Source: a virus
Taxonomy: Duplodnaviria; Caudoviricetes
Length of the DNA: 64,000 nt
Virus record (IMG/VR): IMGVR_UViG_3300032285_001531
Reading direction: 5' to 3' (one strand)
The position numbers were made by a program, and so were the translations under genes. Shown here one piece after another: positions 4,027-56,310 of the stretch (positions within the stretch are counted from its first letter, which is position 1; the number at the start of each line of letters is the position of its first letter). The notes under the pieces are model-generated. The model was not told where the DNA came from, searched no databases, and saw nothing but the letters and a program-made list of their open reading frames with translations.

Positions 4027-4482
4027 ATGACCTGGTATACTAAAGTATCTACTAATCTTGCGGCAATACCTGACTTTATTGCATACTATGATGCTGAATT
4101 AATTTCAGCAAAAAATGATGTAAGAGTAGCAGGTATTTTGGAGAAGAATATCTCAGCATTACCAGGCATCACTGAGCATCGTTTCAATCAACTACAAGAG
4201 ATTGAAGCGGTGCTTAACTTGCTTAATATACAACTACGTAAAATCAGACGCAGACATTTTCAAAAGTATTTAGAAGCGTATAACCGTGTACTAACAAGCC
4301 GTGATGCAGAAAAGTATGTAGACGGTGAAGATGAAGTTATTGATTTTGAAACTATTATTAACGAAGTAGCACTATTACGCAATCGTTGGCTAGGTATTTT
4401 AAAAGGTCTTGATGCCAAACAATGGCAAATGGGCCATATAGTTAGACTACGTACTGCTGGTATGGAAGATATTACACTTTAA
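4027..4482 (+). CDS. uvsY: UvsY-like recombination mediator
   Basis: Helical protein with KYLEAYNRVLTSRDAEKYVDGE and ILKGLDAKQWQ; lies in a uvsX-uvsY-uvsW neighbourhood. Confidence 0.8.
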   Translation: MTWYTKVSTNLAAIPDFIAYYDAELISAKNDVRVAGILEKNISALPGITEHRFNQLQEIEAVLNLLNIQLRKIRRRHFQKYLEAYNRVLTSRDAEKYVDGEDEVIDFETIINEVALLRNRWLGILKGLDAKQWQMGHIVRLRTAGMEDITL

Positions 4483-4499
4483 ACAACATTTTACTAGGC

Positions 4500-4528
4500 T
4501 TGACATTGAATCGATCCAGCTATATAAT
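4500..4528 (+). promoter_or_regulatory. Consensus sigma70 promoter
   Basis: TTGACA (4500-4505), 17-bp spacer, TATAAT (4523-4528), then SD AGGAG and ATG 4560. Confidence 0.85.
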
Positions 4529-4559
4529 TAGCATTCTAAATCAATAATAGGAGCTAATA

Positions 4560-5594
4560 ATGAGTACGATTCTTGTTAAATTCGGTGAGTATCGCAACAA
4601 GCCCGTAATCAATCAAAAATTCACATTAGTAAAAGACTTTCAAACAGGTAAAAAAGGTAACTTTATTACTGTAAAAAATGAAGGTCAATTTGACGTTGCA
4701 ATTGAAGATGTTAGAGTAAAAGTAAATTCCATTAATGATGTAGTATTTGTAGAAGAGGAGCCAACTATGGCAGAAAACGCAATATCATTTGTAGCAAAAG
4801 AAATTAAGCATGTAGAAACTGACGAACAAGCAATGGATCGTATTGCTGCACGTTTTCAAATTTTAGATCAAATGACTAAAGCTGCAATCAATAGTGACAT
4901 TCGTGCTATGATTGTTTCAGGTCCACCGGGTGTAGGTAAATCATTTGGTGTTGAAACACAACTTGAAAAAGCAAGTATGTTTGATAAAATTTCAGGTAAG
5001 AAATTGCGTTTTGAAGTTGTCAAAGGTGCAATGACTGCATTAGGTTTGTATGCTACATTATACAAGTATAGTGATGCTAAGAATGTGTTAGTATTCGATG
5101 ACTGCGACAGTGTGTTCCAAGATGACTTGTCACTAAACATACTAAAAGCAGCACTTGATTCAGGTAAGCGTAGACGTATCTGCTGGAACAGTGATAGTGC
5201 ATTGTTACGTAGAGAAGGTATCCCTGATCAATTTGACTTTAAGGGTAGTGCTATCTTCATTACAAACTTAAAGTTTGAAAATGTTAAGAGCAAAAAACTA
5301 CAAGATCACCTAGAAGCACTAGAATCACGTTGTCACTTTTTGGATCTAACAATTGATACTGAACGTGATAAGATGTTACGTATCAAGCAAGTACATCGTG
5401 ACACTGATGGTGGTCTGTTTAGATCATATGATTTTGATGCTAATCAAGCAGAAGAAATTATGGAATTTATGTCAACTAACAAAACTAAATTGCGTGAATT
5501 AAGTTTACGTATGTGTTTAAAAATTGCTGACTTAGTTAAGATTAGCCCAAGTAACTGGCAGAATCTTGCAGCAAGTACATGTATGAAACGATAA
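4560..5594 (+). CDS. P-loop (AAA+-like) ATPase of unknown function
   Basis: Walker A GPPGVGKS, Walker B LVFDDCD, sensor-like IFITN and ALESR. Confidence 0.75.
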   Translation: MSTILVKFGEYRNKPVINQKFTLVKDFQTGKKGNFITVKNEGQFDVAIEDVRVKVNSINDVVFVEEEPTMAENAISFVAKEIKHVETDEQAMDRIAARFQILDQMTKAAINSDIRAMIVSGPPGVGKSFGVETQLEKASMFDKISGKKLRFEVVKGAMTALGLYATLYKYSDAKNVLVFDDCDSVFQDDLSLNILKAALDSGKRRRICWNSDSALLRREGIPDQFDFKGSAIFITNLKFENVKSKKLQDHLEALESRCHFLDLTIDTERDKMLRIKQVHRDTDGGLFRSYDFDANQAEEIMEFMSTNKTKLRELSLRMCLKIADLVKISPSNWQNLAASTCMKR

Positions 5595-10141: not shown

Positions 10142-10321
10142 ATGGAATTAATGACTTGGATATTATTAGTTTATCAACTAACAGAAAATCCATATGGCAT
10201 GAAACTTGAATATAAGCAAGAGTTTGCTAATCATGCTACATGTATTGCAGAGATACCTAAATACGTGCATAAAGATAAAATGGTATTCTGTGCATTAAAA
10301 AGAGAGGATGTAAAGGAATAA
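10142..10321 (+). CDS. Small hypothetical protein
   Basis: Likely start is ATG 10142, right after the previous stop, with GGAG upstream; the track start at 10022 is probably too early. Confidence 0.5.
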   Translation: MELMTWILLVYQLTENPYGMKLEYKQEFANHATCIAEIPKYVHKDKMVFCALKREDVKE

Positions 10322-18800: not shown

Positions 18801-19127
18801 GTGATAACAGTTACAGAAAAAGCAGCTATCAAAATCAAAAAACATTTAGAAAAAAGAGGTAAGGGTATTGGTATCCTTGTAGGTGTTAATACTACTGGAT
18901 GCAGTGGATTAGCATATAAACTAGAATATGTTGATGACTTACCAAATAAGGGTGAGTACATGACATTCAATAGCAATGATATTATCATAGTAGTCAGTCA
19001 AAAAGACCTCCCCTACATTGATGGTATGAAAATGGAATGGAAGCGTGAAGGATTAAATGAGGGATTTGACTTTATTAATCCAAATGAAACAGCACGTTGC
19101 GGTTGCGGAGAAAGTTTCACCGTTTAA
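18801..19127 (+). CDS. iscA: A-type Fe-S cluster carrier (IscA/HesB family)
   Basis: ITVTEKAA, TTGCSGLAY, FINPNETARCGCGESF; all three Cys ligands present. Confidence 0.92.
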   Translation: MITVTEKAAIKIKKHLEKRGKGIGILVGVNTTGCSGLAYKLEYVDDLPNKGEYMTFNSNDIIIVVSQKDLPYIDGMKMEWKREGLNEGFDFINPNETARCGCGESFTV

Positions 19128-19908: not shown

Positions 19909-22900
19909 ATGGCAATAATACAACTTTCCAAAATTCAACACCGTACAGGGGCTAACGTAGATTTGCCCCAACTAGCTGAGGGCGAATTAGGTTTCGCCAC
20001 AGACGAGCGTAGACTTTACATAGGTAATGACGCAAATCTGTTTCCCCCTTTAGGGACTAGTACTACTACTCAGACTGAGATACTCACAGAGGTTTCTACT
20101 CTGAATTGGTCAAGACTGGGTGGTTCTGCAAATACAACATTAAACATAGAGGCCCCTGTAGAAGATGGGCAGTTAATTGTTGCTAATTCAAATACATGGA
20201 CTAATGCAGGTGGTACTTCAGCTTTGCCTATCAATTTAGGTAATATTCAAAATCTTAATATCGGTGGTGGTTTAAATGGATATGTACTTACAACTGACGG
20301 CTCAGGTAATCTAAGCTGGCAGGGTAGCGGTGTTGTGACATATGCTGTTGCTAATGTTTCACAAGCTAATCCTGCAGTCGTAACAACTACTGAAGATAAT
20401 GCAATCTTAACTGGATTGCAAGTTACAATCTTTGGTGTTGGTGGTATGACCCAGCTAAAGACAGCCGGTGCAAGTGGCACAAACAAATTCTATGTAGTAA
20501 AACAATCTAACAGTACATTCACCCTGTACTCGGACAGTACATTATTATCAGCAGTTAACAGTTCGGCATTTACTGCAGCAGTTCCTAATACAGGTAATGC
20601 AGTCACATCATTCTATGAAAACGGCACAGGTAATCCAGGTGGTGGAAATAGAAATATTCAATTCAATGATGGTTCTGGATTATTTGGTGGTATTGGTACT
20701 TTTACATTTGATAAAACTACTTCTAATTTAAGTTTAACCGGTAATGCAAACATAACATATGATATTGCTGCAAATAATTTCATAGGTAAGTTTACAGGAC
20801 CAATAGGAAACACAACAGCCAATACAGGTAACTTTACGACTATCAATGCTGCTTCTACTATTAGCACTTCAGGAAATGTTTCTGCAGGTGGTAATGTAGT
20901 AGTCACTGGAAATATAAGCACAGGTAGTAATTTAACAACAGCAGGCAATTTAAGTGTAACAGGTAATACTAAGTTAACAGGTAAATTGTCAATGGGTGGT
21001 AATATAGTAGGCAATTTAGTACCAGATGCTGACATCACTTATAATTTAGGTAGTCCAACAAGACGTTGGAAAGATTTATACATATCAAGTAACTCACTCG
21101 TTATTGGTAATGGTACATTATCTACTAGTCCTACTGGTGACTTTAATTTTTCAAACTCAAACATAACAACATTAAATGCTAATTTAGGTAATCTAGCAAC
21201 TGCTAATTTCTTAGGCGGCACACTAATTGCATCATCAAGTTCACAACCTAACATATCAACTGTTGGTAATCTAACAAGTTTGAATGTTGCTGGTATAAGT
21301 AATTTAGGTCCAGTAAACAATGTGTTTATTGGCAACTCTACTGCAAATTATGTATTAACTGCTACTGATGCAAATGGAACCATGCGTTGGTTACCAACCC
21401 AGTATATTGAAACTCCTGCTAAAGGCTCAAATCAAAGCGTACAGTTTAATGTAGGTAATGTAATTTCTGGCAGTGCTAATTTCTTATTTGATAAAGATTT
21501 TAATAAATTAACAGTTCCTAACCTTGTTGTCGGAACAACAATTAACGGCAATGCCACTATTAGTGTTACTGGTAATATAACTGGTAATGCCATTAACGCA
21601 ACTACACTTAATGTTAGTGGTGCTGTAATCGCATCAAACACAGTTAGTGCTGCAGGCAATCTTACATCAAACGGTATACTTACTGTTAATAACAATGCAG
21701 CTATCACTGGTAATTTAAGTTTAACTGGAACCATTACTGCTAATCTTACAAATGCAGGCAATGTAAGTGTATCAGGTAATACAACTACTTCACGTTTATC
21801 TGTAGTATCTAATGTAGTTGCTAACGGTAATATTACTGGTGGTAATATATTAACATTGGGTAGTATATCTGCTGGTGGTAATGTAGATGCAAATAATCTA
21901 AATGCAGCAGGCAATGTCATCATTACTGGACAAGCAAACGCAGTGCGTTTTGTAGCTAGTGCAGAAATTAAAGCTGGTCAATATATTCAAGCTGCTGGTA
22001 AAGCATATATCGGTGAAGATGTATTAGCAAATGGTAATGTTTCTGGTGCTAATATTTTAACTTTAGGTAATGTTTCAGCAGGTGGAAACTTAACTATAGC
22101 AGCAAATGCACAAATCAACGGTAATGCTACTATTACTGGCACTATTGCTGGTGGTAATATTACTACTCTTGGCTTAATCAGTGCAAGAGGTAATATCAAT
22201 GGTGCTAATATTACTGCTAATGGATTTATCACCACAACAGGTGATGTAACAGCAAATGGTGCAATATCAGCAAATGGTAATATTACTAGTTTAGGAACAA
22301 TAACAGCTAACGCATTGAACGTTGGTAATGTATCAACAACTGGTAATTTAACAGTCAACAATCTTGCTGTAGCAAACTTTGTAAGTTCATCATTACTACC
22401 AAATGCAGATATTTCTCTTGCATTGGGTGGCCCAACTAAACGTTGGTCAACATTATATGTTGGCAACACAATCAATATTGGTGATAAGACTATTGTTTCA
22501 GATGCAAATGGTATTGGATTTGGTGCTGCATTATTCAATCAAGCTAATGCAAATATTGCTAACTTAAGAACAGCATATGCAAATCTACCAGATACCGGTA
22601 ATATCAAGATACCAGGTGGTACTTTAGGTGCAATTCTTAAAACAGACGGTAATGGTAATATAAGTTGGGGAGCACCTAGTAGCTTTGTATCTGGTGCAGC
22701 CGGGTCAAACACACAAGTTCAGTTTAACGATGCTAATATAATGGCTGGTAGTGCGAACTTTGTATTCAACAAAACAAGTAACACATTAACAGTAGATAAG
22801 ATCATTGCAAATGGTAGTGGTCTAACAGGAATGAATGGTGCAAATGTAACAGGCACAGTAAGTTCTGCTAGTGTAGCAGGAACAGTATCAGTAAATGCAC

Positions 22901-25900
22901 AACCAAATATTAATAGTGTTGGTAATCTAACAGGTCTAGTGGTAGGTAATTTAGGTAATGTTGATTTCAGTAATACAACTGCAGTAACTTTAAACAGTAA
23001 TAGTCTACGAGTTCCAAATGGTTGGACTCCTGGAATGTCAATCATTGCTGTTAGTCCAACCGCTAATAGTAATGCAGACGCAGGAAAATTAAGTTGGGGT
23101 TATTCATCTCTATTACAAAATGGCAATAGTAATGTAGTTGTTGATACTGCTGCAAATATTCGTTTTACTGCCAACGGTGTAGTTAACGTAGTTACTATCG
23201 CAAACACTGGATTATTCACTTCAAATCTAACAGTTAATGCAATTGCTAATTTAGGCTCAGTTAGTAATGTAAAAATTACTGGTGGTGGACCAAATCAAAT
23301 ATTAAGAACAGATGGTAACGGTGTGTTAAGTTGGGTAGCTCCTGCAAGTACTAGTGCATTAGCAAATGCAAATAGTAACATAACAGTTGAAGCCGCAAAT
23401 ATAAATCTATCAGCAAATGGCACACCTAACGTATTACAAGTAACTGCAACCGGTGTTAATATATCTAATGAAACAATATCTGGTACTTCTAATATCGGTA
23501 CATTAAATATAAATGCTATTGCTAATCTTGGTGCAGTTGCTAATATAAGAATTGGAGGTAGTAATGTAGGATGGTTACTGCAATCAAATGGTGCTGGTGG
23601 AGTTGTTTGGACACCGCCAGCAAGTACAAGTGGCTTAACAAATGGTAACAGTAGCGTTTCTGTTGATCAAAACGGTAATATAAGAATAACTGCAAACACT
23701 GCACCTAATGTAGTTGTCATTGCAAATACAGGGCTTTTCACAAGTAATATTTCAGCGACAGGTACATTAACAACAAATGGTATCGCTGTACTAAACAACG
23801 GTAACATAACACTACCGGGTACTGCTAGTACTGCAGGTAAAATATATTGGCCAGGCACTGCTGCTTGCTCAGCACCACAACTTACTACATATTCAGGTGG
23901 TACACGATTAGTATTACAAGACTCTATTGCTACTAGTGGTTCTGCAGGATACACAATGGGTATTGAATCTGGTAATATGTGGTTTGGTACTGATGTAGTT
24001 GCAGCAGGATTTAAATGGTATGGTGGCATAACTCAAATTGCGACATTAAGTAACGCAACTGGATTTAGTACAGTTGGCAATGTTGCCGGTATTAACATTA
24101 ATACAACAGGTAATGTAAGCGCAACAGGTAATGCTAATATTGGTAATAATGTAAACACTGTTAATGTTAATGCAACCGGTAGTATAATAGCAGCTAATAT
24201 CACTGCTAATACAGTCATAAGCACAACTGGTAATATTAACTCAGGCAATGAGAATGTAACCGGTAATGTACAAGCAGGTAACTTAAGAACAACAGGTAAT
24301 GTAAGCGCAACAGGTAACATCACAACTGCAAACTTCTTTGTAGGTAATGGTTATTACTTGACAGGTGTATTAAGAGAACCAACAGCATTAATTGCTAATG
24401 GTACTTTAAGTAATGTCAGCATTCCAGCTGCTAATGGCTCCATCTCAGTAGTAGCAAATAACGTAAGTGTTATGACTATTACTAGTGTTGGTGCAAATAT
24501 CAGTGGTAATGCAAGTATTTCAGGTAATGCTAACGTAGGTAACTTAGGAACTGCGGGTAATGTTACAGCAAATTACTTTATTGGTAATGGTGCATTATTA
24601 ACAGGCATTGCAACAAGCAATCAATTGTTTAATGGAAATAGTAACGTAACTATTGATTCAAATGCTAACGTAAGAATTACTGCAAATGGATCAGCAAACA
24701 TCGTAAGTTACATTGGTAATGGTGTATATCCTGCAAATGCTAACATAGGAGCAATTCAGCCGCAAAATACTTATTATCGTGTTGGTAATGTATATGTATC
24801 ATCTGGTGGCGATTACGGACATTTCTCTACTCATGCATGGTACACTGGCGGTATGTGGATGGGTGATGGTGCAGTTGGCGGATTATTCCAAATAGCAGGA
24901 CCTACATTTAATTGGTTCAAAGGTTCTGCATGTACAAGTGTCACATACACTAGTTTGATGTCACTTGATGCTAATGGAAATTTATTCGCAAATGGTACTA
25001 TATCATCAGTAAGCAATATAACCGGTGTTAATATAATTGGTACTAATATAAGTGCCACAGCTAATGTAACTGGTGGTAATATCATAACTGCTGGTGCAGT
25101 AAGTGCTACTGGTGTAATAAGTACTGCTGGTAATATTGTAAGTAACAGCTATCACTTCTTAAATTCATATGCTGGCGCCACTGAAGGTGGTCAGATTGTT
25201 ATGTCGTTTGCTGGTGGTAACGCTTATGCTAATGCAGTAGCTTCAACATGGAACATAGATGTTGGTCCTGCAAATGACTTCCGTATATTCAATTATAACT
25301 CGGGTGGTGCGGTATCAATTCCATTCATAATTCGTCAATCAAATAATCAAGCAGATTTCACTGGAAATATTGCTACTGGTGCTAATGTTAATGCAGGCAA
25401 TGTTAATACTACCGCTGCAGTATCAGCAGGTGGTAATATTACTACAACACAGTTCTTAAATGCTGGTAGTATGAGTGTTTCTGGCACTATTAATGGTGGC
25501 GCAAATGCTAACATAGCAGGTAATTTAAATCTAACAGGTAATGCAAATGTAATAGGTAAGATAAATGTATCCAATAGCATTAGTATGGCTAATGGCTCTC
25601 TGAACATAATTAATTGGGGTACTGCTGGTTATGCACCGCCTAGTATTGTAGCAGCTTATGGAAATGGCACAAAAATTGTATTGTTTGACAGTAAAACATC
25701 AACTGCTACTGCTCTTGGCTACACAATGGGTATTGATACAAGTACATTCTACTTTACCAGTGATGTAAACTTTAAATGGTATACTAATGGCTCACTAACA
25801 CCAGTAGCAACAATGACTCCTACAGGATTCAGTGTCACTGGCACAGTTAATGCATCCAACTTTGTTGGTAACGGATCTGGTCTTACTGGTATTTCAGCAT

Positions 25901-28900
25901 CAAATGCACTTAGTTTGGTAAACGGTTCAAGTAATGTTGTAGTTGACGTAAATGGTGCAATAAGAATTGGTGCAATAGGTGTGCCTAATGTGTTGACCAT
26001 CACAAACACAGGCACAGTAGTGACAGGTACAGAAAGCGTAACTGGTGCTATTACTGCTAATGGTGCAATTACAACGGCAACAACTTTAACTGCAGCTAAT
26101 TTGAGTATTACTGGAAATGTAGCATTTACTGCTGCAAACGTAAGTTTAGGATCTAATACTGCTGTTAGAATTACTGGTGGGGGTCCTAATCAATTCTTAA
26201 AAACAGATGGAAACGGTAATTTAAGTTGGGTTTCTGCAGGTGGTACTGCAAACGTTGCAGGTGCACCAACTCAAGTACAGTTTAACACTGGCGGTGCAAT
26301 GGATGCTAGTGCTAACTTTACATTTGATAAAACAACTAATACATTAGTAGTCACTAATGCTACAAATTCAGGTAACTTAAGCGTAGGCGGTAATGCAACT
26401 GTAGCAGCTAACTTAAGTGTTACTACAGGCAATATCAGTGCTAGTGGTAACGTTAGCTTAATTGGCAATAACGTAACTGGTAAACTAGTGTTTAACAATA
26501 ATGGTGTTGCAGCTCCGATATTAAATGGTGTAAGTAATGGTACTAGAACAATTTTCTATAATTCAGCAGGAGCTCAAGCTACTAACTTTGCAATGGGTAT
26601 AGATAGTAGCACATTATGGTACAGTGTTCCGGATACAGCTAGTTTCCACAGATGGTACGGTGGAACAACTCAGCTTGCATATCTAACTGGAATTGGATTC
26701 TCTGTAACAGGTAACATATTTGCTAGTGCTAATATTAGTACTATTGGCAATATTCTTGCTGCAGGTTTACTCAGTGTTACTGGAACAATTTCAAGTACTG
26801 GTGCTATTGCTACCCCAAGTACAATCAGTGCTACAGGTAATATTAATACTACAGCTACACTAAATGCAGCAGCATTGTCTGTAACTGGAGCAGCAATTTA
26901 CGGTGGTGTAATTAACACAACAAGCACAATGAGTGCTACTGGTACAGTAACGGCAGGTGGATTTATCACTGCAGGTACAATTAGTGCTAATGGTACTATT
27001 ACATCAAATACTGCAATTAACACTACAGGTACTATAAGTGCTACTGGTAACATTACTACTGCTGGTTACATACAAGCTGCAGGTCTTGCTTCTAGCGGTA
27101 ACATGGCAATCCCAGCAGGTAATTCATTATTGATGGGAACAAATGCTGGCACATCAGCTAAGATAATATGGGATGCAGCTGGGACAGGAGCACCAACATA
27201 TAGTGCATTTAGTCCAGGTACAAAATTAGTATTGTATCCTGCAACTGCTGCGCCATACACACCAAGTGCAAGTGAGGTTGGATATGCAATGGGTATTGAA
27301 GCCTACTCAATATGGTATAGTACAAGCAATTCTACAGTTGGTTTCCATAGATGGTATGCAGGTAATACACAAATTGCAAACTTAAACTATCAATCATTTA
27401 CTGTAGCAGGAAATTTAAGTGCAGTTGGTAATGTTTATTCAAATAACGAAAACGTAACAAGTAATGTACAAGCAGGTAACTTAAGAACAACAGGTGTAGT
27501 ATCTGCAGCAAGTACAATAACCGGTGGCAATTTAGTAACAGGAGGCACAATAAGTTCATATGGTATTGCAACATTAGGTAATGTTGTTGTACCAACAGGC
27601 GGTACTATATCTGCAATCGGCAATATCATTGGTGGTAATATAGTAGCAAATGCAACTGTCACTGGTGTAACATTAAGTGCTAGTGGTAACGTAACAGGCT
27701 TTAACTTAACAACTGGCGGTGTAGTGAGTGCTGCTAGTAACGTAACCGGTGGTAATATCTTAACTGGTGGTTTAATAAGTGCTGCAGGTAGTGTTACAGG
27801 TATAAGTCTTGTTGGTAATCTATACACAGTTCGTAACGGTGGTATTTACTGGCCTAGTGATACTAGTGGTGACGTTGCAACTATCACTTATCTAAGATCA
27901 GGCGCTGATACTGGTACCCTAGAACTTTCTGTACAAAATGATACAGACGATATTATTAGATTAAATGCAAGTGGTGGTACATCAGTTGTTGGTAATTTAA
28001 CAGTTGGTGCTAACATAACAACAACTGCAAATGCTAACGTAGGTAATTTAAATGCAACAAGTAATGTACAAGCAGGTAACTTAAGAACAACTGGATTAAT
28101 AAGTGCTACTGGTAATGTAACAGCTAGTAATTTTATCACAACTGGCACGATAACTTTAGGTGGTGTCATCAGTGCTACTGGTACCCCAGCTGCTATCGCT
28201 GCTACTGGTACAATTAACACTTTAAGTACAATTAGTGCTACTGGCACAATTACTGGTGGTAATATTGTAACCGCAGGCGCAGTCAGTGCAACAGGTATAA
28301 TCAGTACTACAGCTAATATTACTACTGCAGCTAATATTAGTGCTACTGCAGGAATATTTGCTAGTACAATTAGTGCTGTTGGTAATATCAACAGTACAGG
28401 TAACATTATAACTAATGGTACAATATGTACTATAGGATTGATAGTAAGTGCAGGTGCAAGTGCTAACTTTGCCTCTCCGATATATGCAACATCATTAATT
28501 AGTACTACTGCAACAGTTACTAGTGCTGTTTTAAGTGCTACAGGAAATGTAAATGCTGCTAATGTAATATCTACTGGTAATGTAAATGCTGGTACTAACA
28601 TAAGTGCTACTGGTAATATTACTTCTGCAGCAAACATAAGTACTAGTGGTAATATTATTGCTGCTGGCACAATGAGTTCTACTGGATTAGCGACACATGG
28701 TAGTTTAAGTGTCGTTGGTAGTTCTACTCATACTGGTGCAATCAATACAACTAATGCTATTAGTGCTGTTGGTACGGTTACTGCAGGTGGATTCAGTACT
28801 ACAGGAAATACTATTACTGGTAATTTAAGCGTTACTGGTAACGTAATTGGTACATTAACTGTTCCTGGTACTGCAAATATTGGTACTGCAAATGTAACTA

Positions 28901-29355
28901 CTTTAAATGTATCTGGTGCTGCTAATGTAAGTCCAAGTTCAGTTGTAAGAGATCCTGCTAATGCAGCAATAAATATTCCAGTTGGATATCGTATAAATCC
29001 ACTAATTCCCGTAACAATGGCATCTGGAACTATTGCCAGTGTTTTATACGATAATAACGCTACACAAAAAATATTTTATGTCACTGGTGCAACCGTAGCT
29101 ACTGGTGTAATTAATTGGGAAGGCAGCGGATCTTTCGAACGTTTTGCTCTTGGTTCAGTTATAACTATTATCAATGATAGTTCAGGAACAGTACAAGCTT
29201 CTGGCTCCTATGCTGGATGTAATTTTAGACGAGCGCAAACCGGAGCTACAACAAATACTATTAATGTTGGACCTAATGGTTATGCAGTATTTACTAAGAT
29301 TGTATCTGTTGGACCAGGCGGATATCCATTATGGTTCGTGTCAGGTAATTTCTAA
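19909..29355 (+). CDS. Giant tail fibre (3148 aa)
   Basis: Mtd_N-like N-terminus (KIQHRTG...LPQLAEGELGFATDERRLYIGN); N/G/T/A/S-rich triple-beta repeats; repeated TQVQFN and TDGxGNLSW junctions. Confidence 0.85.
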   Translation: MAIIQLSKIQHRTGANVDLPQLAEGELGFATDERRLYIGNDANLFPPLGTSTTTQTEILTEVSTLNWSRLGGSANTTLNIEAPVEDGQLIVANSNTWTNAGGTSALPINLGNIQNLNIGGGLNGYVLTTDGSGNLSWQGSGVVTYAVANVSQANPAVVTTTEDNAILTGLQVTIFGVGGMTQLKTAGASGTNKFYVVKQSNSTFTLYSDSTLLSAVNSSAFTAAVPNTGNAVTSFYENGTGNPGGGNRNIQFNDGSGLFGGIGTFTFDKTTSNLSLTGNANITYDIAANNFIGKFTGPIGNTTANTGNFTTINAASTISTSGNVSAGGNVVVTGNISTGSNLTTAGNLSVTGNTKLTGKLSMGGNIVGNLVPDADITYNLGSPTRRWKDLYISSNSLVIGNGTLSTSPTGDFNFSNSNITTLNANLGNLATANFLGGTLIASSSSQPNISTVGNLTSLNVAGISNLGPVNNVFIGNSTANYVLTATDANGTMRWLPTQYIETPAKGSNQSVQFNVGNVISGSANFLFDKDFNKLTVPNLVVGTTINGNATISVTGNITGNAINATTLNVSGAVIASNTVSAAGNLTSNGILTVNNNAAITGNLSLTGTITANLTNAGNVSVSGNTTTSRLSVVSNVVANGNITGGNILTLGSISAGGNVDANNLNAAGNVIITGQANAVRFVASAEIKAGQYIQAAGKAYIGEDVLANGNVSGANILTLGNVSAGGNLTIAANAQINGNATITGTIAGGNITTLGLISARGNINGANITANGFITTTGDVTANGAISANGNITSLGTITANALNVGNVSTTGNLTVNNLAVANFVSSSLLPNADISLALGGPTKRWSTLYVGNTINIGDKTIVSDANGIGFGAALFNQANANIANLRTAYANLPDTGNIKIPGGTLGAILKTDGNGNISWGAPSSFVSGAAGSNTQVQFNDANIMAGSANFVFNKTSNTLTVDKIIANGSGLTGMNGANVTGTVSSASVAGTVSVNAQPNINSVGNLTGLVVGNLGNVDFSNTTAVTLNSNSLRVPNGWTPGMSIIAVSPTANSNADAGKLSWGYSSLLQNGNSNVVVDTAANIRFTANGVVNVVTIANTGLFTSNLTVNAIANLGSVSNVKITGGGPNQILRTDGNGVLSWVAPASTSALANANSNITVEAANINLSANGTPNVLQVTATGVNISNETISGTSNIGTLNINAIANLGAVANIRIGGSNVGWLLQSNGAGGVVWTPPASTSGLTNGNSSVSVDQNGNIRITANTAPNVVVIANTGLFTSNISATGTLTTNGIAVLNNGNITLPGTASTAGKIYWPGTAACSAPQLTTYSGGTRLVLQDSIATSGSAGYTMGIESGNMWFGTDVVAAGFKWYGGITQIATLSNATGFSTVGNVAGININTTGNVSATGNANIGNNVNTVNVNATGSIIAANITANTVISTTGNINSGNENVTGNVQAGNLRTTGNVSATGNITTANFFVGNGYYLTGVLREPTALIANGTLSNVSIPAANGSISVVANNVSVMTITSVGANISGNASISGNANVGNLGTAGNVTANYFIGNGALLTGIATSNQLFNGNSNVTIDSNANVRITANGSANIVSYIGNGVYPANANIGAIQPQNTYYRVGNVYVSSGGDYGHFSTHAWYTGGMWMGDGAVGGLFQIAGPTFNWFKGSACTSVTYTSLMSLDANGNLFANGTISSVSNITGVNIIGTNISATANVTGGNIITAGAVSATGVISTAGNIVSNSYHFLNSYAGATEGGQIVMSFAGGNAYANAVASTWNIDVGPANDFRIFNYNSGGAVSIPFIIRQSNNQADFTGNIATGANVNAGNVNTTAAVSAGGNITTTQFLNAGSMSVSGTINGGANANIAGNLNLTGNANVIGKINVSNSISMANGSLNIINWGTAGYAPPSIVAAYGNGTKIVLFDSKTSTATALGYTMGIDTSTFYFTSDVNFKWYTNGSLTPVATMTPTGFSVTGTVNASNFVGNGSGLTGISASNALSLVNGSSNVVVDVNGAIRIGAIGVPNVLTITNTGTVVTGTESVTGAITANGAITTATTLTAANLSITGNVAFTAANVSLGSNTAVRITGGGPNQFLKTDGNGNLSWVSAGGTANVAGAPTQVQFNTGGAMDASANFTFDKTTNTLVVTNATNSGNLSVGGNATVAANLSVTTGNISASGNVSLIGNNVTGKLVFNNNGVAAPILNGVSNGTRTIFYNSAGAQATNFAMGIDSSTLWYSVPDTASFHRWYGGTTQLAYLTGIGFSVTGNIFASANISTIGNILAAGLLSVTGTISSTGAIATPSTISATGNINTTATLNAAALSVTGAAIYGGVINTTSTMSATGTVTAGGFITAGTISANGTITSNTAINTTGTISATGNITTAGYIQAAGLASSGNMAIPAGNSLLMGTNAGTSAKIIWDAAGTGAPTYSAFSPGTKLVLYPATAAPYTPSASEVGYAMGIEAYSIWYSTSNSTVGFHRWYAGNTQIANLNYQSFTVAGNLSAVGNVYSNNENVTSNVQAGNLRTTGVVSAASTITGGNLVTGGTISSYGIATLGNVVVPTGGTISAIGNIIGGNIVANATVTGVTLSASGNVTGFNLTTGGVVSAASNVTGGNILTGGLISAAGSVTGISLVGNLYTVRNGGIYWPSDTSGDVATITYLRSGADTGTLELSVQNDTDDIIRLNASGGTSVVGNLTVGANITTTANANVGNLNATSNVQAGNLRTTGLISATGNVTASNFITTGTITLGGVISATGTPAAIAATGTINTLSTISATGTITGGNIVTAGAVSATGIISTTANITTAANISATAGIFASTISAVGNINSTGNIITNGTICTIGLIVSAGASANFASPIYATSLISTTATVTSAVLSATGNVNAANVISTGNVNAGTNISATGNITSAANISTSGNIIAAGTMSSTGLATHGSLSVVGSSTHTGAINTTNAISAVGTVTAGGFSTTGNTITGNLSVTGNVIGTLTVPGTANIGTANVTTLNVSGAANVSPSSVVRDPANAAINIPVGYRINPLIPVTMASGTIASVLYDNNATQKIFYVTGATVATGVINWEGSGSFERFALGSVITIINDSSGTVQASGSYAGCNFRRAQTGATTNTINVGPNGYAVFTKIVSVGPGGYPLWFVSGNF
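27456..28091 (+). repeat. Dispersed exact DNA repeat in the giant fibre
   Basis: AACAAGTAATGTACAAGCAGGTAACTTAAGAACAAC at 27456-27491 and 28056-28091; a third copy at 24263-24297 matches 27461-27495. Confidence 0.85.
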
Positions 29356-29359
29356 AATA

Positions 29360-29385
29360 AAATGGGCTATTAATTTAGCCCATTT
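29360..29385 (+). terminator. Hairpin after the giant fibre, probable terminator
   Basis: AAATGGGCTA-TTAATT-TAGCCCATTT. Confidence 0.7.
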
Positions 29386-29395
29386 CAGCTAAATA

Positions 29396-29470
29396 CTATA
29401 GTTCACTCTCTATATGAGAGAGTTTATGCAGCACCCACTGCGTAGACCCTAGAACGGTCACTATAGGAGA
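29396..29470 (+). ncRNA. Candidate cis-regulatory structured 5' leader (multi-way junction)
   Basis: Three hairpins enclosed by CTATAGT/ACTATAG; the 3' strand runs into the SD AGGAG. Confidence 0.5.
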
Positions 29471-29479
29471 TTAAAACAA

Positions 29480-30616
29480 ATGGGACGTCCTTTAAAAATT
29501 ATCAAAGAAAACGCATCAGCAAGCCCAAGTGGAAAAATTGATGCAGGTTATCCAAATAACGGAACAACCAATAATGGATTCAGTAGAAGCTATCCAGGTA
29601 TTCTCGGCGGATCAATTCCAACATTTAACGATTCAGATCAAGTTGAAGCTAGTGTAGCTATTGAGAAAAAACAATATGGTACAATAGTTGCATCAACTGC
29701 ACATACTTGTGTAAGCGGTTTCGGCACTGCATTTAGCAGTGTACTGTCAGTAGGTAGTTCAGTTTATGCTGACGGTATTTCCGCTGCAATTGGAACAGTT
29801 AATACATTAAATGCAAATGCATCAGACACAGCAACAGCAACAACTGCATCAAATGATCGTATCACTGTAACAGCTAGTGCGCAGTTCGTAGTAGGCGGTT
29901 CGGTAACTGTTGCCGCAAATATTGGTAATCTAGTTGCAGGAACAGTGTATTATGTATATGATTTACCAACTTCAACAACATTACGTGTTAGTTCTACACC
30001 TGATCTAGCATCTATATTCCAGTTAGCTGATACTACATTACAATCAGTAGCAATAACTCAAACACAAACATTGACTTTAGACGCAGTTTCAACTGCATCA
30101 GTTACACGTAGTGTTTGGACCAGCTCTACTCCTGAAAGTAATAATGGTTATATTGTTCGTCAAAAGGGTAAGAGAAAATTCTTAGTTGTTGCTAAAACAG
30201 CAATTCAGGATGAGTTCATTGCTCAAGGCGGAAGCTACATGATCGTTTCAGTTAGTAATACCAACTGGGAAGCATTAGGAGCAGGAGCAGATGCAACAGC
30301 AGGTAAAATATTCACTGCAATTAAAGATGGAACCGGTCTAACAACTAATGGAACTGTTTACGCAGTTGGTGTGTGTTTATTATCAAACGTTGCTGATGGA
30401 AGTTTAACTAGAAATCAAATGAACTTAAATCTAAACAAGGCAAGTGGTCCAGATGTATTTGCATCTTCAGTATCAGATCATTTTGCAGTTGATTTCACTG
30501 ATAACGGAACTGATGAAAATGCAGGAACTAAGTTTATTGCAACACTAAATGGTGCAAGCAATACTCCAGATCCAGCAACAGGTCTCATCTCTGTCGCAGT
30601 AGATAACTATTGCTAA
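29480..30616 (+). CDS. Conserved virion structural protein
   Basis: MGRPLK start, YIVRQKGKRKFLV motif, T/S/A-rich; late promoter and terminator flank it. Confidence 0.6.
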   Translation: MGRPLKIIKENASASPSGKIDAGYPNNGTTNNGFSRSYPGILGGSIPTFNDSDQVEASVAIEKKQYGTIVASTAHTCVSGFGTAFSSVLSVGSSVYADGISAAIGTVNTLNANASDTATATTASNDRITVTASAQFVVGGSVTVAANIGNLVAGTVYYVYDLPTSTTLRVSSTPDLASIFQLADTTLQSVAITQTQTLTLDAVSTASVTRSVWTSSTPESNNGYIVRQKGKRKFLVVAKTAIQDEFIAQGGSYMIVSVSNTNWEALGAGADATAGKIFTAIKDGTGLTTNGTVYAVGVCLLSNVADGSLTRNQMNLNLNKASGPDVFASSVSDHFAVDFTDNGTDENAGTKFIATLNGASNTPDPATGLISVAVDNYC

Positions 30617-50247: not shown

Positions 50248-53200
50248 ATGGCTCAAGAGAATATTGATTTTGGTGCTTACCCCAACGATCCAGATGCAGA
50301 TGCAATTAGAGTAGCGTTCCAAAAAGTACAGAATAATTTTAGCGAAATATATTCAACTGCACTGACTACAGGTGTTGATCAGGTAATTGCAGGGACAGGT
50401 ATATTAGTAGACCAAAACATTGGAAATGTAACGGTCACCGCACGTATCCCACAAATTACTATACAAACAGGTGACAGTTTAAAAATTGGTGTCAGCGCAG
50501 CCACCACAAATACTGCTACAATTACATCAGGAAGCACTCCATTTGTAATTACACTAGCAAACACAATTAACACAATAAACATTGTTGCTACAGGCAATTT
50601 AGTTGGTACCTTAGCAGCAAATGCAAGTTCACAGCCAAACATAACTTCAGTAGGAACATTAGCTAATCTAAGTGTATCTGGAAATATCAATGCTCAAAAC
50701 CTAATAGGAAATGTAGTAGCAACAAATTTATCTGCTACAAATATTGGTATAGCAGGGGCCAATACACAATTATTATATAACTATCAAGGCAATATAAGAT
50801 CCGCTAGTGGATTAACTTTTGATAATGCAAATCTAACTGTTGCAAATAGAGTACAAGCTGGTAACTTAAGTGTTACTGGTAATTCTAATGTTAACATAGT
50901 ACGTGCTAATTATCTATATGGTGACGGTAGTAATTTAACTAATGTTAACATTGCAACTGCTGGTACATTAAGTGTACCTAATTTAATAGCTAGTGGTAAT
51001 CTAGTAGGTACATTAGCAGCTAATGCAAGTTCACAACCAAACATCACAACTGTTGGTGTACTATCAAGTTTAAGTGTAACAGGTACATCTAATTTAGCTA
51101 ACGTCAATGCAGGTAATATAAGTGCAACTGGTAATGCTAATGTAGGTATATTACGTGCAACTTATCTTTATGGTGATGGTAGTAATTTAACTAATTTAAG
51201 TACACCTACATCATTCAGTGCAGGTAATGTAAGCGTAAGTGGTAATATAACTGGTCGTTTATCTGCTGCTTCTGCATTACAACCAAACATCACAACTGTT
51301 GGTACATTATCTAATTTATCAGTTGCAGGCACCGTAGTAGTACCAAATGTATCTGCTACGTATATATCAGCATCAGGCAACATTTCAGCACCTGGTACTA
51401 ACACTCAAGTAGTATTCAATAATCAAGGTAACTTAGCCGGCAGTACAAATCTTGTATTTACAGGTTCAAATTTAAATGTTGCTGCAAATTTAAATGCAAC
51501 AGGAAATATAAGTGGTAATAATGCAACATTAGCAGGTAGATTAAATGCAACAGGAAACATAAGTGCTGCAGGAAATATTAGTACAGCAAGTAACTTAAAT
51601 GTATCAGGGAATGCAGCTATAACAGGTACTGCAACTATATCAGGTAATGCAGTTGTAACAGGTAAAGTAACAGCAGGCACAATATCTTCAATAGGTAACA
51701 TTGACTCAGGTGGTAACTTGAATGCTAACAGTGTTACACTATCAGGTGAAGCCAATGCTAATATAGTACGTGCTGTATATCTATACGGTGATGGTAGTAA
51801 CATCAGTAACGTTGGCACAGTTGTTCCTCGTAACGAAATTACTAGAGGTGCTGGGTATGTATCATTAGACATCAACGGTTATATTCATGGCGGTGATAGC
51901 GTTAACGGTGATCAATTTATAGTCAAAGCTGGTAATGGATTACAAGCTCTTAATAAATTCTCTATTACAGATGGAACTGCAAATTATTTCTCATCAAATA
52001 CAACTGATGCTAGTTTTGATTTAGGGCAAAATTTTGAAGGTTCAACCTTCACGGTTGAATGTCAGGACAATGTAGGAGCACAATTACAAATATCTGCTCC
52101 TGCAGGTGGAGTAGGAAATAGTCAAGCATGGTTAGGTGCTAATACAGTAATTATAGCTGGTACTGGCACTGCTAACGCTAAACTAAGCTCAATTAATTTA
52201 ACAGGTAGTACAATCTCTGTTGTTGGTAATTTAGTAATGAATAGCAGTCCAGCAAGTTCAACTAATAATACACAAGTTGCTACTACTGCGTTTGTACAAA
52301 CATTAGTGGGTACTAAAGCTAACTTAGCTAGTCCTATATTCAGTGGAACTCCAACTGCACCAACTGCAGCCAATGGAACAAATAACACACAAATCGCTAC
52401 CACACAATTCGTAGCAAATGCTATAGCAGCAGGCGCTGGTGCTGGTGGCGGAACATTTATAGCAAACGGTAATAGCAACGTAAGTACAAGTAGTAACGGC
52501 AACATTAAAATATCATTGGGTGACGGTAATAATAGCAACTCAACCTTTGCTATTAGTTTAAACGATGGTACCGGTGTAAATCAAATTAGGATTAACAGCG
52601 GTAACGGTAATGCTGGAAATATGAATTCAAATATTACAACTATTGCTACAAATTATAGTATGCAGATAGTTGGAGGTGGATATGCAAATGGTAGTTCACT
52701 ACTCATGCGTCCTGATCAATTTACTGTTACTCATTTGCAGCAAATTCGTATGTCTGCACCTACTACTAATATGTTTTCGCCGCTTACATACATTTCTGGT
52801 AATTTAGTTATTACTTCTGGATCTCCTGGAATTACCCTACAAGCAGACGCTGCCGTAGCTAATTTAACAGGTGCAAACAGTAAGATTTTCTTAAGTGGTG
52901 CTATACCAGCTAATGCATCAAACACAATGGTACCAACTACTGCATGGGTAACAGGCTATACACAAACAGCTATTGCAGGGGCAATATCAAATGCAGTAAC
53001 ATCAAACAATTTTGTATTAACAAAAATAGGTCCTGCTAGTGGTACAAATACAGGTTCTATTGTTAATAATGACACATTAGCAACCACTCTAAACTATGCT
53101 AATATGTATTTCCCTGTAGTATTAGGTACACAAGACTTTACTTTTGAAGGTTGGTTTAAGTATACATCAATTGGTGCAACTAATGGAACACTATTTGGCT

Positions 53201-56200
53201 TAGGCGGTGGCGCCGGTGAGATAATAGTTAAAATAGTAGGTACTACTCTTAATCTTGTTATATTCAGTGCTACTGCTTCTCTTGGGACAGCACCAGCGAC
53301 AAACACTTGGTTTCACGTTGCCGTGTCAAAAAATGCAGGTACTATTAGAGTATTTGCTAACGGCATAGCTGTTTATACTAGTGCTAGTTACAGTGCAACT
53401 TCTCTTGGTAGTGATATGGTATTGGGGCAACAGCTATATACCGCTGGTACATACTTTAATGGATTAATTACTAATGTACGTTTTGTTGCTGGCACAGGCG
53501 TATACTCAAGCAACTTCACACCACCTACTAGTGCATTAACTGCTATATCTGGTACTACACTATTATTGTTAACACAAAATCTAGCAACTGTTAACTTTGA
53601 TAATAGCGGAAACTATAGATTTAATAATATGTTCCAAAGTAACTTTGGATATAATACTGATTCACCTATTACAACTCAAACAAATACACTTACTGTAACA
53701 TCTCCAATAACATTACCAGCAAGTTATACAATGCGTCTACCTGGTAATTTAGGTAGCAATGGTCAAGTATTAAGCACAGATGGTACAGGTAACTTAAATT
53801 GGATTACCGCAAGTGGCGGTAGTGGTGGAACTGGTAATTTAATTACTAGCGGAGGAATCGCTACTGTAGCTACAAGTTCAGTAAGCGGTGTAGGATTTGT
53901 TAAGACTACAATTAGTAATGCTGACATTATAACTACCACTGCAGTATCTACTGTATTCAACAATGGTAACGTGGGCATAGGTGTACCGGGTAATCCTACA
54001 GCAAGATTAGACATAGCCGGAATACAAGGTTCATTAACTGAAGCTAGAATTAGATCACTTGATGATAGAATGGCTAGAGTGTCATTAGTCAATACAGTAC
54101 GCAACTGGTCAATATCTAATTATGGAAATCAATTTGCTCCTAATGGTCAATTCGCAATTGCAGATGAAACACAAGGTGCAGTAAGATTTGCAATTGATGT
54201 ATTAGGTAATGTAACTGTTACTAGTAATTTAATAGTATCTGGTATAACATCATTGGGTGCTAACAGTAATGTTAAAATTACAGGTGGTACAACTGGTCAA
54301 GTATTAAGTACAGATGGCACAGGCAATCTGAGTTGGATAACTGCAACAGGCGGTGGCGGTGCAACTACAACAATTAGTAATGCAAATAGTATTGTTAGTA
54401 CATTTGCATATGGTCAAGTATCTGTATCTACAGGTGCATTACAAACAATATTCAGTAATGCAGGAGTTGGTATTGGAACTAATTCACCTACTAGTGTTAC
54501 TGGAGCAACAAGTGTTACTATCAATGGCGGTGCAAACGGTGGTAGAGTTGATTTATTAAAGAGCGGAACTCAGTTTGGTGCAATATACAGTGCTGCAGCT
54601 AATTTATTAGATATTGAAGCAATTGGTACAAATACAGCAATTCGTCTAAACACAAACGGTGCTGAACGTATGCGTATTGATCCTAACGGTAACGTTGGTA
54701 TTGGCACTACTACTCCTTCTTATAAATTAGACATAACTGCTGGTACATTAGGAACAACTGCTGGAAGTACAGTTTCATATCAACGCTTAGTTTCATTTGA
54801 TACAAATGCCGATTATCTTGAAATAACAAATACTAGGCAAACTGCTGGATCGTCTTGGGTTGGGGCTGGATCAAGACTGCAACAAAAAGTAGATGCTACA
54901 TGGATGGCGTATATACAATTTAATGGTGGAGCAGGTACAACAAATGATGGTGGTATTTCTTTTGGAACTGGAACTACCACAGTAAATTCCACATCAATAT
55001 TGGAACGTATGCGTATTGATGCATCTGGCAATGTGGGTATCGGAACAACTACTCCGGCAGCAAAATTAGATGTCAATGGCACAGTAAATATTAGTGGTAA
55101 TACTGCTATAGCAGGCAATGCAACTATCACCGGTAATACTACTATAACAGGTAATGTAACTCACTCTAGTATATCAAAATTGGGTCCTGTAGGTAATGTT
55201 CAAATCACAGGTGGTTCATCTGGTCAAGTATTAAGTACAGATGGCACAGGTAATCTAAGTTGGGTAGCACAATCAGGTGGCGGTGGAGGATCTTCATCAT
55301 ATAATGGATTTAAGAATCGCCTCATCAACGGTGCATTTAATGTTTGGCAACGTGGTACAAGCTTTAATATTAGTACAAACGGAGGATATACTGCTGATAG
55401 ATGGTTCCTATTTAATCCTATTCCTATGACATTTAGTCAGTCAACTGATGTGCCTCAAGGATTTGTATATAGTGCTAAAGCAGGTAGAGCAGCAGGTCAA
55501 GCATCTGGTAATTATTTATATATAGGACAAAATATTGAATATGCCAGTTTTTCGGATTTAGTAGGACAACCTATTACGGTTAGCTTCTGGGCAAAGAAAG
55601 GTGCAAACTTTAGCGGTACATCATTGAATAGTGAGATTTATACTGGTACGTCACTGGATCAAGGTGGTAATGCCGGTATACAAGGGCTTTGGGTTGGTTC
55701 AGTTTCTAATTCGGTTAATATAGCAATTACAAATACATGGGCAAAGTATAGTTACACTTATACATTACCAGCAAACGCTAAATCACTTGTATTAGATTTT
55801 GGATATACATGCTCAGGTACTGCAGGTGCAGATGATAATTTCTATATTACAGGAATACAATTTGAAGCAGGTAGTACAGCAACTTCTTATGATGCTATAT
55901 CACCTTCAGAGGCGTTATCACGCTGTCAGAGATTCTATTGCAAGAATAGTAATACTGATGTTGTAGCTACTCATGGCAGTCCATATACAACTACTGGAAT
56001 GTTTAGTTCAGGAACGATAGGAGCGTATGGTGCTAATGCAGGTTACATTCAGTGGATACCTTTCCCAGTGTCAATGTTTAGAGCACCAAATTTTGGTGGC
56101 GATATTAAATTTATCAATCCTGGTAGTTTAACATCAGGTGCTATCACAGTAGGGCAGTGGATGGTGTATAACGCAGGAACTTGGGCAAGTTCAACTACTT

Positions 56201-56310
56201 TAGCAGTCCAGTCTGTTACTACAAATGGCATGGGATTAAATATAGGTGGAACATTCCCTGCAGGAACATCACTATGGTACGGGGCATGGACTGTATCTGC
56301 AGACTTATAA
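50248..56310 (+). CDS. Long tail fibre/baseplate-attached fibre (2020 aa)
   Basis: N-terminus DPDADAIRVAFQKVQNNFSEIY is T4 gp9/gp10-like. It has QVATTAFVQ and NVGIGTTTP repeats, a LamG-like insert (DFTFEGWF...WFHVAVSK...FNGLITNVRF) and a FKNRLINGAFNVWQRG CBM-like domain. Confidence 0.85.
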   Translation: MAQENIDFGAYPNDPDADAIRVAFQKVQNNFSEIYSTALTTGVDQVIAGTGILVDQNIGNVTVTARIPQITIQTGDSLKIGVSAATTNTATITSGSTPFVITLANTINTINIVATGNLVGTLAANASSQPNITSVGTLANLSVSGNINAQNLIGNVVATNLSATNIGIAGANTQLLYNYQGNIRSASGLTFDNANLTVANRVQAGNLSVTGNSNVNIVRANYLYGDGSNLTNVNIATAGTLSVPNLIASGNLVGTLAANASSQPNITTVGVLSSLSVTGTSNLANVNAGNISATGNANVGILRATYLYGDGSNLTNLSTPTSFSAGNVSVSGNITGRLSAASALQPNITTVGTLSNLSVAGTVVVPNVSATYISASGNISAPGTNTQVVFNNQGNLAGSTNLVFTGSNLNVAANLNATGNISGNNATLAGRLNATGNISAAGNISTASNLNVSGNAAITGTATISGNAVVTGKVTAGTISSIGNIDSGGNLNANSVTLSGEANANIVRAVYLYGDGSNISNVGTVVPRNEITRGAGYVSLDINGYIHGGDSVNGDQFIVKAGNGLQALNKFSITDGTANYFSSNTTDASFDLGQNFEGSTFTVECQDNVGAQLQISAPAGGVGNSQAWLGANTVIIAGTGTANAKLSSINLTGSTISVVGNLVMNSSPASSTNNTQVATTAFVQTLVGTKANLASPIFSGTPTAPTAANGTNNTQIATTQFVANAIAAGAGAGGGTFIANGNSNVSTSSNGNIKISLGDGNNSNSTFAISLNDGTGVNQIRINSGNGNAGNMNSNITTIATNYSMQIVGGGYANGSSLLMRPDQFTVTHLQQIRMSAPTTNMFSPLTYISGNLVITSGSPGITLQADAAVANLTGANSKIFLSGAIPANASNTMVPTTAWVTGYTQTAIAGAISNAVTSNNFVLTKIGPASGTNTGSIVNNDTLATTLNYANMYFPVVLGTQDFTFEGWFKYTSIGATNGTLFGLGGGAGEIIVKIVGTTLNLVIFSATASLGTAPATNTWFHVAVSKNAGTIRVFANGIAVYTSASYSATSLGSDMVLGQQLYTAGTYFNGLITNVRFVAGTGVYSSNFTPPTSALTAISGTTLLLLTQNLATVNFDNSGNYRFNNMFQSNFGYNTDSPITTQTNTLTVTSPITLPASYTMRLPGNLGSNGQVLSTDGTGNLNWITASGGSGGTGNLITSGGIATVATSSVSGVGFVKTTISNADIITTTAVSTVFNNGNVGIGVPGNPTARLDIAGIQGSLTEARIRSLDDRMARVSLVNTVRNWSISNYGNQFAPNGQFAIADETQGAVRFAIDVLGNVTVTSNLIVSGITSLGANSNVKITGGTTGQVLSTDGTGNLSWITATGGGGATTTISNANSIVSTFAYGQVSVSTGALQTIFSNAGVGIGTNSPTSVTGATSVTINGGANGGRVDLLKSGTQFGAIYSAAANLLDIEAIGTNTAIRLNTNGAERMRIDPNGNVGIGTTTPSYKLDITAGTLGTTAGSTVSYQRLVSFDTNADYLEITNTRQTAGSSWVGAGSRLQQKVDATWMAYIQFNGGAGTTNDGGISFGTGTTTVNSTSILERMRIDASGNVGIGTTTPAAKLDVNGTVNISGNTAIAGNATITGNTTITGNVTHSSISKLGPVGNVQITGGSSGQVLSTDGTGNLSWVAQSGGGGGSSSYNGFKNRLINGAFNVWQRGTSFNISTNGGYTADRWFLFNPIPMTFSQSTDVPQGFVYSAKAGRAAGQASGNYLYIGQNIEYASFSDLVGQPITVSFWAKKGANFSGTSLNSEIYTGTSLDQGGNAGIQGLWVGSVSNSVNIAITNTWAKYSYTYTLPANAKSLVLDFGYTCSGTAGADDNFYITGIQFEAGSTATSYDAISPSEALSRCQRFYCKNSNTDVVATHGSPYTTTGMFSSGTIGAYGANAGYIQWIPFPVSMFRAPNFGGDIKFINPGSLTSGAITVGQWMVYNAGTWASSTTLAVQSVTTNGMGLNIGGTFPAGTSLWYGAWTVSADL

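Follow-up and report, generated by a model that had tools for sequence, protein, structure and literature searches.

A freshwater-2 RNA precedes a predicted late gene of an uncultured T4-like phage and is probably a translational operator

Introduction

The cis-regulatory RNA family freshwater-2 (Rfam RF02980) is presumably, going by its Rfam/Wikipedia entry, known only from aquatic metagenomes, where it is found 5′ of genes without known domains. The motif is said to be a product of the comparative screen that Weinberg et al. published in NAR in 2017. A search of the literature collection used here for RF02980 or "freshwater-2" by name found no mention, and freshwater-2 is not named in the main text of Weinberg 2017 (PMC5737381). 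The Rfam model describes three tandem hairpins followed by AAGGAGA...AAACAAAUG and does not contain a closing stem.

Two kinds of T4 leader are the closest described systems. In the leaders of gene e (lysozyme) and of I-TevI, the late promoter lies inside the 5′ strand of a hairpin that sequesters the ribosome binding site (RBS) (PMC3014915). The autogenous operators of gene 32 (a pseudoknot) and gene 43 (a hairpin), together with the RegA sites, are structured and sequence-specific elements in the 5′ leaders of replication genes, near the initiation region (PMC3014915). The T4 late promoter itself, TATAAATA, spans −13 to −6 relative to the transcription start (PMC1524935).

Here, we analyzed the leader of a 378-aa open reading frame (ORF) in a stretch of 64,000 nucleotides from a viral metagenomic record (IMGVR_UViG_3300032285_001531), which as a whole is called the window below. 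A sequence-only reading of the window, made before any database search, had drawn attention to this leader, and its claims are taken up where our results bear on them.

Results

Judged from its sequence, the window is part of an uncultured T4-like myovirus. It encodes a gp15-type sheath stabilizer, a tail sheath, a tail tube, a gp32-like SSB, a primase, helicases and a NUDIX protein, and neither the DNA of the leader and its gene nor the encoded protein had a match in the GenBank phage collection. The leader follows an ORF of 3148 aa (19909–29355, + strand) that is rich in short N/G/T/S repeats and fibre-like; a second giant ORF of 2020 aa lies at 50248–56310 (+). The hairpin behind the stop codon of the 3148-aa ORF (Table 1) has no T run and was not called by a terminator scan, and it is possibly a weak terminator or a 3′ stabilizer. 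A probable auxiliary metabolic gene lies upstream of the 3148-aa ORF, at 18801–19127 (+) and beside an exonuclease gene; its product is of the HesB/IscA type and serves Fe-S cluster biosynthesis (PF01521, E 3e-16).

Table 1. Coordinates of the leader, its neighboring elements and the downstream gene in the window
Feature	Position	Strand	Basis or remark
Hairpin AAATGGGCTA/TAGCCCATTT	29361–29386	+	After the stop of the 3148-aa ORF; forms in the long-transcript fold
T4-type late promoter core CTAAATA	29389–29395	+	Family consensus NATAAATA or NCTAAATA, C usually next
Closing stem, 5′ arm CTATAGT	29396–29402	+	At −5 to +2 of the predicted start; window-specific
Predicted late transcription start G	29401–29401	+	6 nt 3′ of the promoter core; inferred from T4
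P1 hairpin ACTCTCT-ATATG-AGAGAGT	29405–29423	+	Variable first freshwater-2 hairpin; absent in some lineages
RF02980 (freshwater-2) match	29406–29482	+	cmscan, 57.7 bits
P2 hairpin UAUGCAG-CACCCA-CUGCGUA	29425–29444	+	U·G wobble conserved; C-rich loop
P3 hairpin GACC-CUAGAAC-GGUC	29445–29459	+	No linker between P2 and P3
Closing stem, 3′ arm ACTATAG	29460–29466	+	2-nt overlap with the Shine-Dalgarno sequence
Shine-Dalgarno AGGAG	29465–29469	+	Sequence; RF02980 alignment
Start codon ATG	29480	+	Sequence
378-aa ORF MGRPLK...	29480–30616	+	All-beta late protein, function unknown

The leader matches RF02980, a Cis-reg family, with a score above the gathering score of 49.9 bits (E 2.9e-8), and RF02980 was the sole Rfam family above threshold across the 64-kb window. 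The alignment is untruncated and spans model positions 1–84 of 84. The window leader has the three tandem hairpins of the family, a P2 of the form UAUGCNG/CNGCGUA and a 4-bp P3 with the loop CUAGAAC; from UUAUGC..GCGUAG through CUAGAAC to AAGGAGA...AAACAAAUG the core is identical to the model, and the two differ in the 7-bp closing stem, which is present in the window and absent from the model. It lies directly 5′ of an RBS and a start codon on the same strand, as do all 105 copies of the motif that are described below. Moreover, each of eight leaders of homologues of the 378-aa protein from IMG/VR loci exceeded the RF02980 gathering score, and each was placed directly upstream of its gene. 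The sequence-only reading had taken the leader for an unrecognized and uncharacterized RNA; the Infernal search against Rfam contradicts this, as the family that it matched had already been described. The statement that the RNA is not a tRNA was borne out: ARAGORN found no tRNA gene in the window, and no tRNA family was among the cmscan hits at E ≤ 10. A variable loop is absent, and the loop CUAGAAC sits on a stem of 4 bp. A tRNA or tRNA mimic was therefore rejected as an identity for the leader.

Folding with RNAfold gave the four-way junction as both the minimum free energy (MFE) and the centroid structure. The 71 nt from 29396 to 29466 reach −25.1 kcal/mol, where shuffles average −12.2 (z −5.2) and none of 200 was as good; with flanks (29389–29490), z was −2.6. 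Every helix and motif described by the sequence-only reading was recovered at its position, and P2, read there as ATGCAG/CTGCGT (29426–29443), can be extended by one U-A pair. By these measures, the leader is a real folded RNA and an ordinary member of a known orphan family of phage leaders.

A pattern scan of IMG/VR for the P2–P3 core returned at least 120 stretches. We analyzed 105 distinct copies with usable flanks among the matches listed, the window included, of which 103 came from IMG/VR viral contigs. Since the search pattern fixed most of P2 and the P3 loop, the invariance of these parts in the 105 copies is partly by construction; the Rfam consensus independently shows the same conservation of P2 and the P3 loop. 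The one P2 pair left free by the pattern is G-C in 50 copies, A-U in 38 and U-A in 17, and is unpaired in none. All copies keep a U·G wobble in P2, which identifies this strand as the RNA. In P3, 94% of cells are paired and three of the four positions hold three to five pair types, while the 7-nt loop CUAGAAC, fixed by the pattern, is identical in every copy among the matches listed. P2 and P3 are thus under selection at the RNA level. P1 varies in sequence and length and is missing in some lineages; in 12 relatives, 80% of its cells are paired. AAGGAG follows all 105 copies, and GGA stands 6–11 nt, mostly 7–8 nt, before the AUG throughout the family. The spacer between P3 and the Shine-Dalgarno (SD) sequence ranges from 5 to 19 nt across copies, a variation that speaks against a bound protein simply blocking the SD sterically.

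The same scan, applied to one genome each of 185,579 prokaryote species, gave a single match, on a 148-kb contig (NZ_JBBAKG010000003.1; our locus L136, 1–8000) of a metagenome-assembled genome (MAG) of Haliscomenobacter sp. This locus carries a T4-like phage block with a gp21 protease, a gp23 capsid protein, a fatty-acid desaturase and a TPR/GT9 protein, and either the contig is phage DNA that was binned wrongly or it hints at a Bacteroidota host. As the copies come from IMG/VR and the lone MAG match lies in a phage region, freshwater-2 is a phage element within the collections scanned.

Both arms of the closing stem in the window contain the palindrome ACTATAG, a direct repeat that doubles as an inverted repeat. 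Of the relatives that have a leader, L133 is the closest (protein 65% identical); its 5′ arm has lost one base and its 3′ arm is unchanged, so that the helix is broken, and remnants of about 3 bp and of 5 bp are left in L001 and L007 and in L005, respectively. Among 12 close relatives, 58% of the cells of the closing helix are paired, compared with 100% for P2 and P3. Across the 105 copies the value is 47%, and 17.5% for the outermost pair, against 25–51% for slid controls. An enclosing helix was missing from the MFE structure of 59 of 104 copies when folding began at −5, and of 84 of 104 when it began at +1. We therefore rejected the closing stem as a feature of the freshwater-2 family. Since pairing across the family is at the level of the controls, the four-way junction is not a family property, and in this register it is a local feature of this genome. 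The four-way junction announced by the sequence-only reading thus holds for the fold of the window and fails for its closing stem in relatives; likewise, the covariation for which homologous leaders were to be searched is strong in P2 and P3 and does not extend to the 7-bp closing stem.

A different closing helix was seen in another clade, which mostly encodes MGRP proteins of 117–160 aa. It also has 7 bp and begins at the predicted +1, with compensated changes between copies (GUCAGAU/AUCGGAC, GUUCAGU/AUUGGAC and GUCUAAU/GUUGGAC). Its carriers are L059 (8798–8913, −), L038, L024, L058, L102, L112, L116 and L123. This clade has a true four-way junction, which is not included in the Rfam model.

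The sequence CTAAATA stands immediately before the 5′ arm of the closing stem. With the T4 late promoter at −13 to −6, the late transcript of the window is predicted to start at G29401, and the T4-type spacing supports the proposal of the sequence-only reading that a transcript would begin near this position. TAAATA is found 15–52 nt 5′ of P2 in 104 of the 105 copies, most commonly as GATAAATA (54 copies), CATAAATA (13) or GCTAAATA (13). Within the window, TAAATAC is depleted, with 13 sites against 22 expected. Several of these lie just 5′ of ORF starts on the same strand (near 1314, 17731, 34125 on the − strand, 34177, and 37918 on the − strand), and further sites are at 10258, 15289 and 29390. 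When the RNA is begun at +1, no more than 4 nucleotides are unpaired at the predicted 5′ end in 92 of 104 copies. In the window, five of the seven bases of the 5′ closing arm fall upstream of the predicted start, so only transcripts reading through from the 3148-aa ORF could form the closing stem.

The sequence-only reading had further proposed two alternative folds over the RBS, with GTTC (29401–29404) pairing with GAAC (29452–29455) in place of the junction. Both tetranucleotides are present, and the MFE structure of RNA begun at 29401 does pair GUUC with GAAC instead of forming P3; if the 5′ arm is included, the junction prevails in the long form with a probability near 1. However, the closing stem reaches no further into AGGAG than its first 2 nt (AG), and the SD is no less accessible in the long form, with an unpaired probability of 0.60–0.65 compared with 0.46–0.47 in the short form. 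Given this near-equal accessibility, and with a closing stem that relatives have not kept, a clear switch at the RBS is unsupported.

Across the family, 40 of 104 copies have, no more than 16 nt from the promoter, a stretch of at least 4 nt complementary to CUAGAAC; the background is 15%. It occurs in 12 of the 14 copies with a short 5′ segment (at most 22 nt), most of which lack P1, and the largest clades have no such complement near the 5′ end, so that the GTTC/GAAC pairing was rejected as a general feature. The invariance of the P3 loop means that pairing of this type gives no covariation signal. We regard it as a lineage-specific possibility only. In the variants without P1 (L023, 3356–3450, −; L052, L074, L086, L094 and L108), GUCUAG directly follows the late promoter and complements CUAGA in the P3 loop, a pairing that the MFE structure favors over P3. 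We also considered the 5′ arm of P1 as an anti-SD element, which suits the CUCUC-type P1 of the window's clade, and rejected it, as the P1 sequences of other clades are wholly different.

In most copies, the last bases of the P2 loop are CCCA or CCA; the gene starts with AUGGG. CCCA is thus complementary to the UGGG of the start region in the majority of copies. The four core pairs of this putative helix can form in 83–100% of copies and a flanking fifth in 11%, with 74.8% of cells paired overall, and the register fits best at slide 0. A Watson-Crick match of 4 nt that overlaps the start codon is found in 72 of 105 copies, compared with about 20 when the loops are shuffled, and 33 copies are without one. 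All four copies that start with AUGGCA lack CCC; one of these (L037, loop GCCA) is fully compensated, and three are not. Covariation between loop and start in the 105 copies equals the shuffle mean, a result that may be due to conservation of both sides for other possible reasons, such as the coding of Met-Gly. Comparison of the copies is consistent with pairing between the P2 loop and the AUG and does not prove it.

The ORFs behind all 105 copies begin with MGRP, MGRA or MAR, have lengths of 117–470 aa and belong to one protein family; 78 of them match the profile of the window's protein family, and short and long forms have their C-terminal domain in common (hhalign 98.4%). The conserved segments, MGRPLK at the N terminus and RQKGKRKF, are basic. 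The AF2 model of the 378-aa protein is confident and all-beta (pLDDT 86). This protein matched no Pfam or PHROG family, and Foldseek against the PDB returned nothing at E ≤ 0.001. In a wide VIA-align search, the sole match was the inserted beta-barrel of residues 112–195 (Z 7.6), and a structure search of BFVD returned uncharacterized phage proteins only. The best structural match of the short-form model (Z 3.1) is at noise level, and neither this match nor the inserted barrel amounts to a recognizable RNA-binding fold. None of the 415 metagenomic homologues found is named beyond "hypothetical protein". In L133 and L136, the MGRP gene lies a few genes 3′ of gp23, and its product is plausibly a virion protein. 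The conserved virion gene of the sequence-only reading is thus a conserved late gene; the word "virion" is an inference for which neither a family nor an informative fold match was found. As further observations at single loci, a pirin-family gene (4172–4855, +) lies between the MGRP and NUDIX genes of L133 and is absent from the window, and the ORF behind the motif of L112 (10845–10967, −) ends after seven codons (MGRPITD, then stop), so that an intact leader may here stand before a broken or frameshifted gene.

Discussion

Overall, after analyzing the leader and its relatives, we favor, with a probability of roughly 0.6, the reading that the window carries a freshwater-2 leader on a late-promoter transcript, with a closing stem that is local to this genome and a P2–P3 module that acts as an operator of MGRP translation. 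The arrangement runs from the late promoter CTAAATA and the predicted start at G29401 through P1, the P2–P3 core and AGGAG to the AUG of an MGRP-family late gene. On the late mRNA, the P2–P3 module would serve as a sequence-specific operator that sets MGRP translation through a protein bound to P2–P3, for which the basic product of the gene itself is one candidate. The P2 loop CCCA may additionally pair with the UGGG of the start region, and P1, close to the 5′ end, would further shield the mRNA from decay. The leader is thus probably a translational operator of a late message. The fold, the match to a Cis-reg family and the linkage to one gene also support the more general claim of the sequence-only reading, that a conserved late gene of the phage has a structured leader acting in cis.

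Other explanations of the leader have to be weighed against this operator model. One that is compatible with it, and that we consider rather unlikely, is a clamp on the start codon, in which a long-range pseudoknot between CCCA of the P2 loop and UGGG of AUG-GGA keeps initiation repressed as long as neither a factor nor the ribosome has opened it. The frequency of the core pairs and their best fit in exactly this register, the excess of 4-nt matches over shuffled loops, and the AUGGCA copies, all without CCC and compensated in L037, argue for such a clamp. However, the helix would have just 4 bp, there is no covariation beyond that of shuffles, three of the four AUGGCA copies are uncompensated, about a third of the copies (33) lack the 4-mer, and UGGG is fixed in any case by the coding of Met-Gly. 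It is very unlikely that the hairpins are purely a 5′ stabilizer that only shields late mRNA from decay dependent on the 5′ end. The few unpaired nucleotides at the predicted 5′ ends of most copies (92 of 104) and the clade whose helix begins exactly at +1 would fit this role, but it leaves unexplained the constant P3 loop, the U·G wobble, the P2 sequence and the exclusive linkage to one protein family.

A switch between long and short transcripts of the T4 gene e and I-TevI type would have read-through RNA form the closing stem and be poorly translated, whereas late-promoter RNA would lack the stem and be well translated. Several features of the window recall this arrangement: the promoter core ends at 29395, with the 5′ arm at −5 to +2, and in T4 the late promoters of e and I-TevI are embedded in the 5′ strand of an inhibitory hairpin (PMC3014915); the absence of a T run from the upstream hairpin makes read-through plausible; and the long form adopts the junction with a probability near 1. 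Nevertheless, we consider the switch highly improbable, because the stem covers only 2 nt of an SD that is predicted to be no less accessible in the long form, because it is unconserved in L133, L001 and L007 and at control level family-wide, and because the upstream gene is itself of late structural type, which leaves no contrast between early and late expression. A metabolite riboswitch or tRNA-like mimic is extremely improbable. The multi-stem layout with conserved loop nucleotides 5′ of an RBS is what one would expect of a riboswitch, and the window structure is cloverleaf-like, with 71 nt, a 7-bp closing stem and a 2-nt linker. However, no expression platform is present and no alternative helix is conserved family-wide, and the downstream gene encodes a structural-type late protein rather than a transporter or an enzyme. 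As for a tRNA-like RNA, neither ARAGORN nor the tRNA models found one, and the family can do without P1 and the closing stem, both of which a cloverleaf requires.

Under the operator model, the protein that binds P2–P3 could be the MGRP protein itself. We speculate that the two form an autoregulatory pair, in which the small and basic MGRP protein binds P2–P3 of its own late mRNA, or stabilizes the pseudoknot between the P2 loop and the AUG, and thereby caps its own synthesis; as a specific proposal, we rate this as unlikely. If it were true, co-evolution of the RNA with the protein would extend over a very wide range of T4-like and jumbo phages, and the pair would be the first known autogenous translational circuit for a late structural-type gene of T4-like phages.

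By itself, the window leader is ordinary, another copy of a catalogued orphan RNA motif. The context described here presumably adds three things to the Rfam entry: the link to T4-like phages, a motif that starts only a few bases from a predicted late-promoter start, and a single protein family, MGRP, that always follows it. The orphan RNA thereby gains a concrete hypothesis, the translational control of one late phage protein, and the MGRP protein family is flagged as worth characterizing.

With the leaders of T4 gene e and I-TevI, the window leader shares a late transcript that lacks the 5′ arm of a helix open to longer transcripts. In contrast to these leaders, the helix of the window covers 2 nt of the SD, so that the long form does not sequester the RBS; it is unconserved in related phages, and the upstream transcript is also late. 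Freshwater-2 has no sequence or structural similarity to the T4 autogenous operators of genes 32 and 43 or to the RegA sites, and it comes without a known binding protein; its gene is late and of structural type, whereas theirs are replication genes. Like those operators, freshwater-2 is a structured and sequence-specific element of the 5′ leader near the initiation region, and it is strictly tied to one gene.
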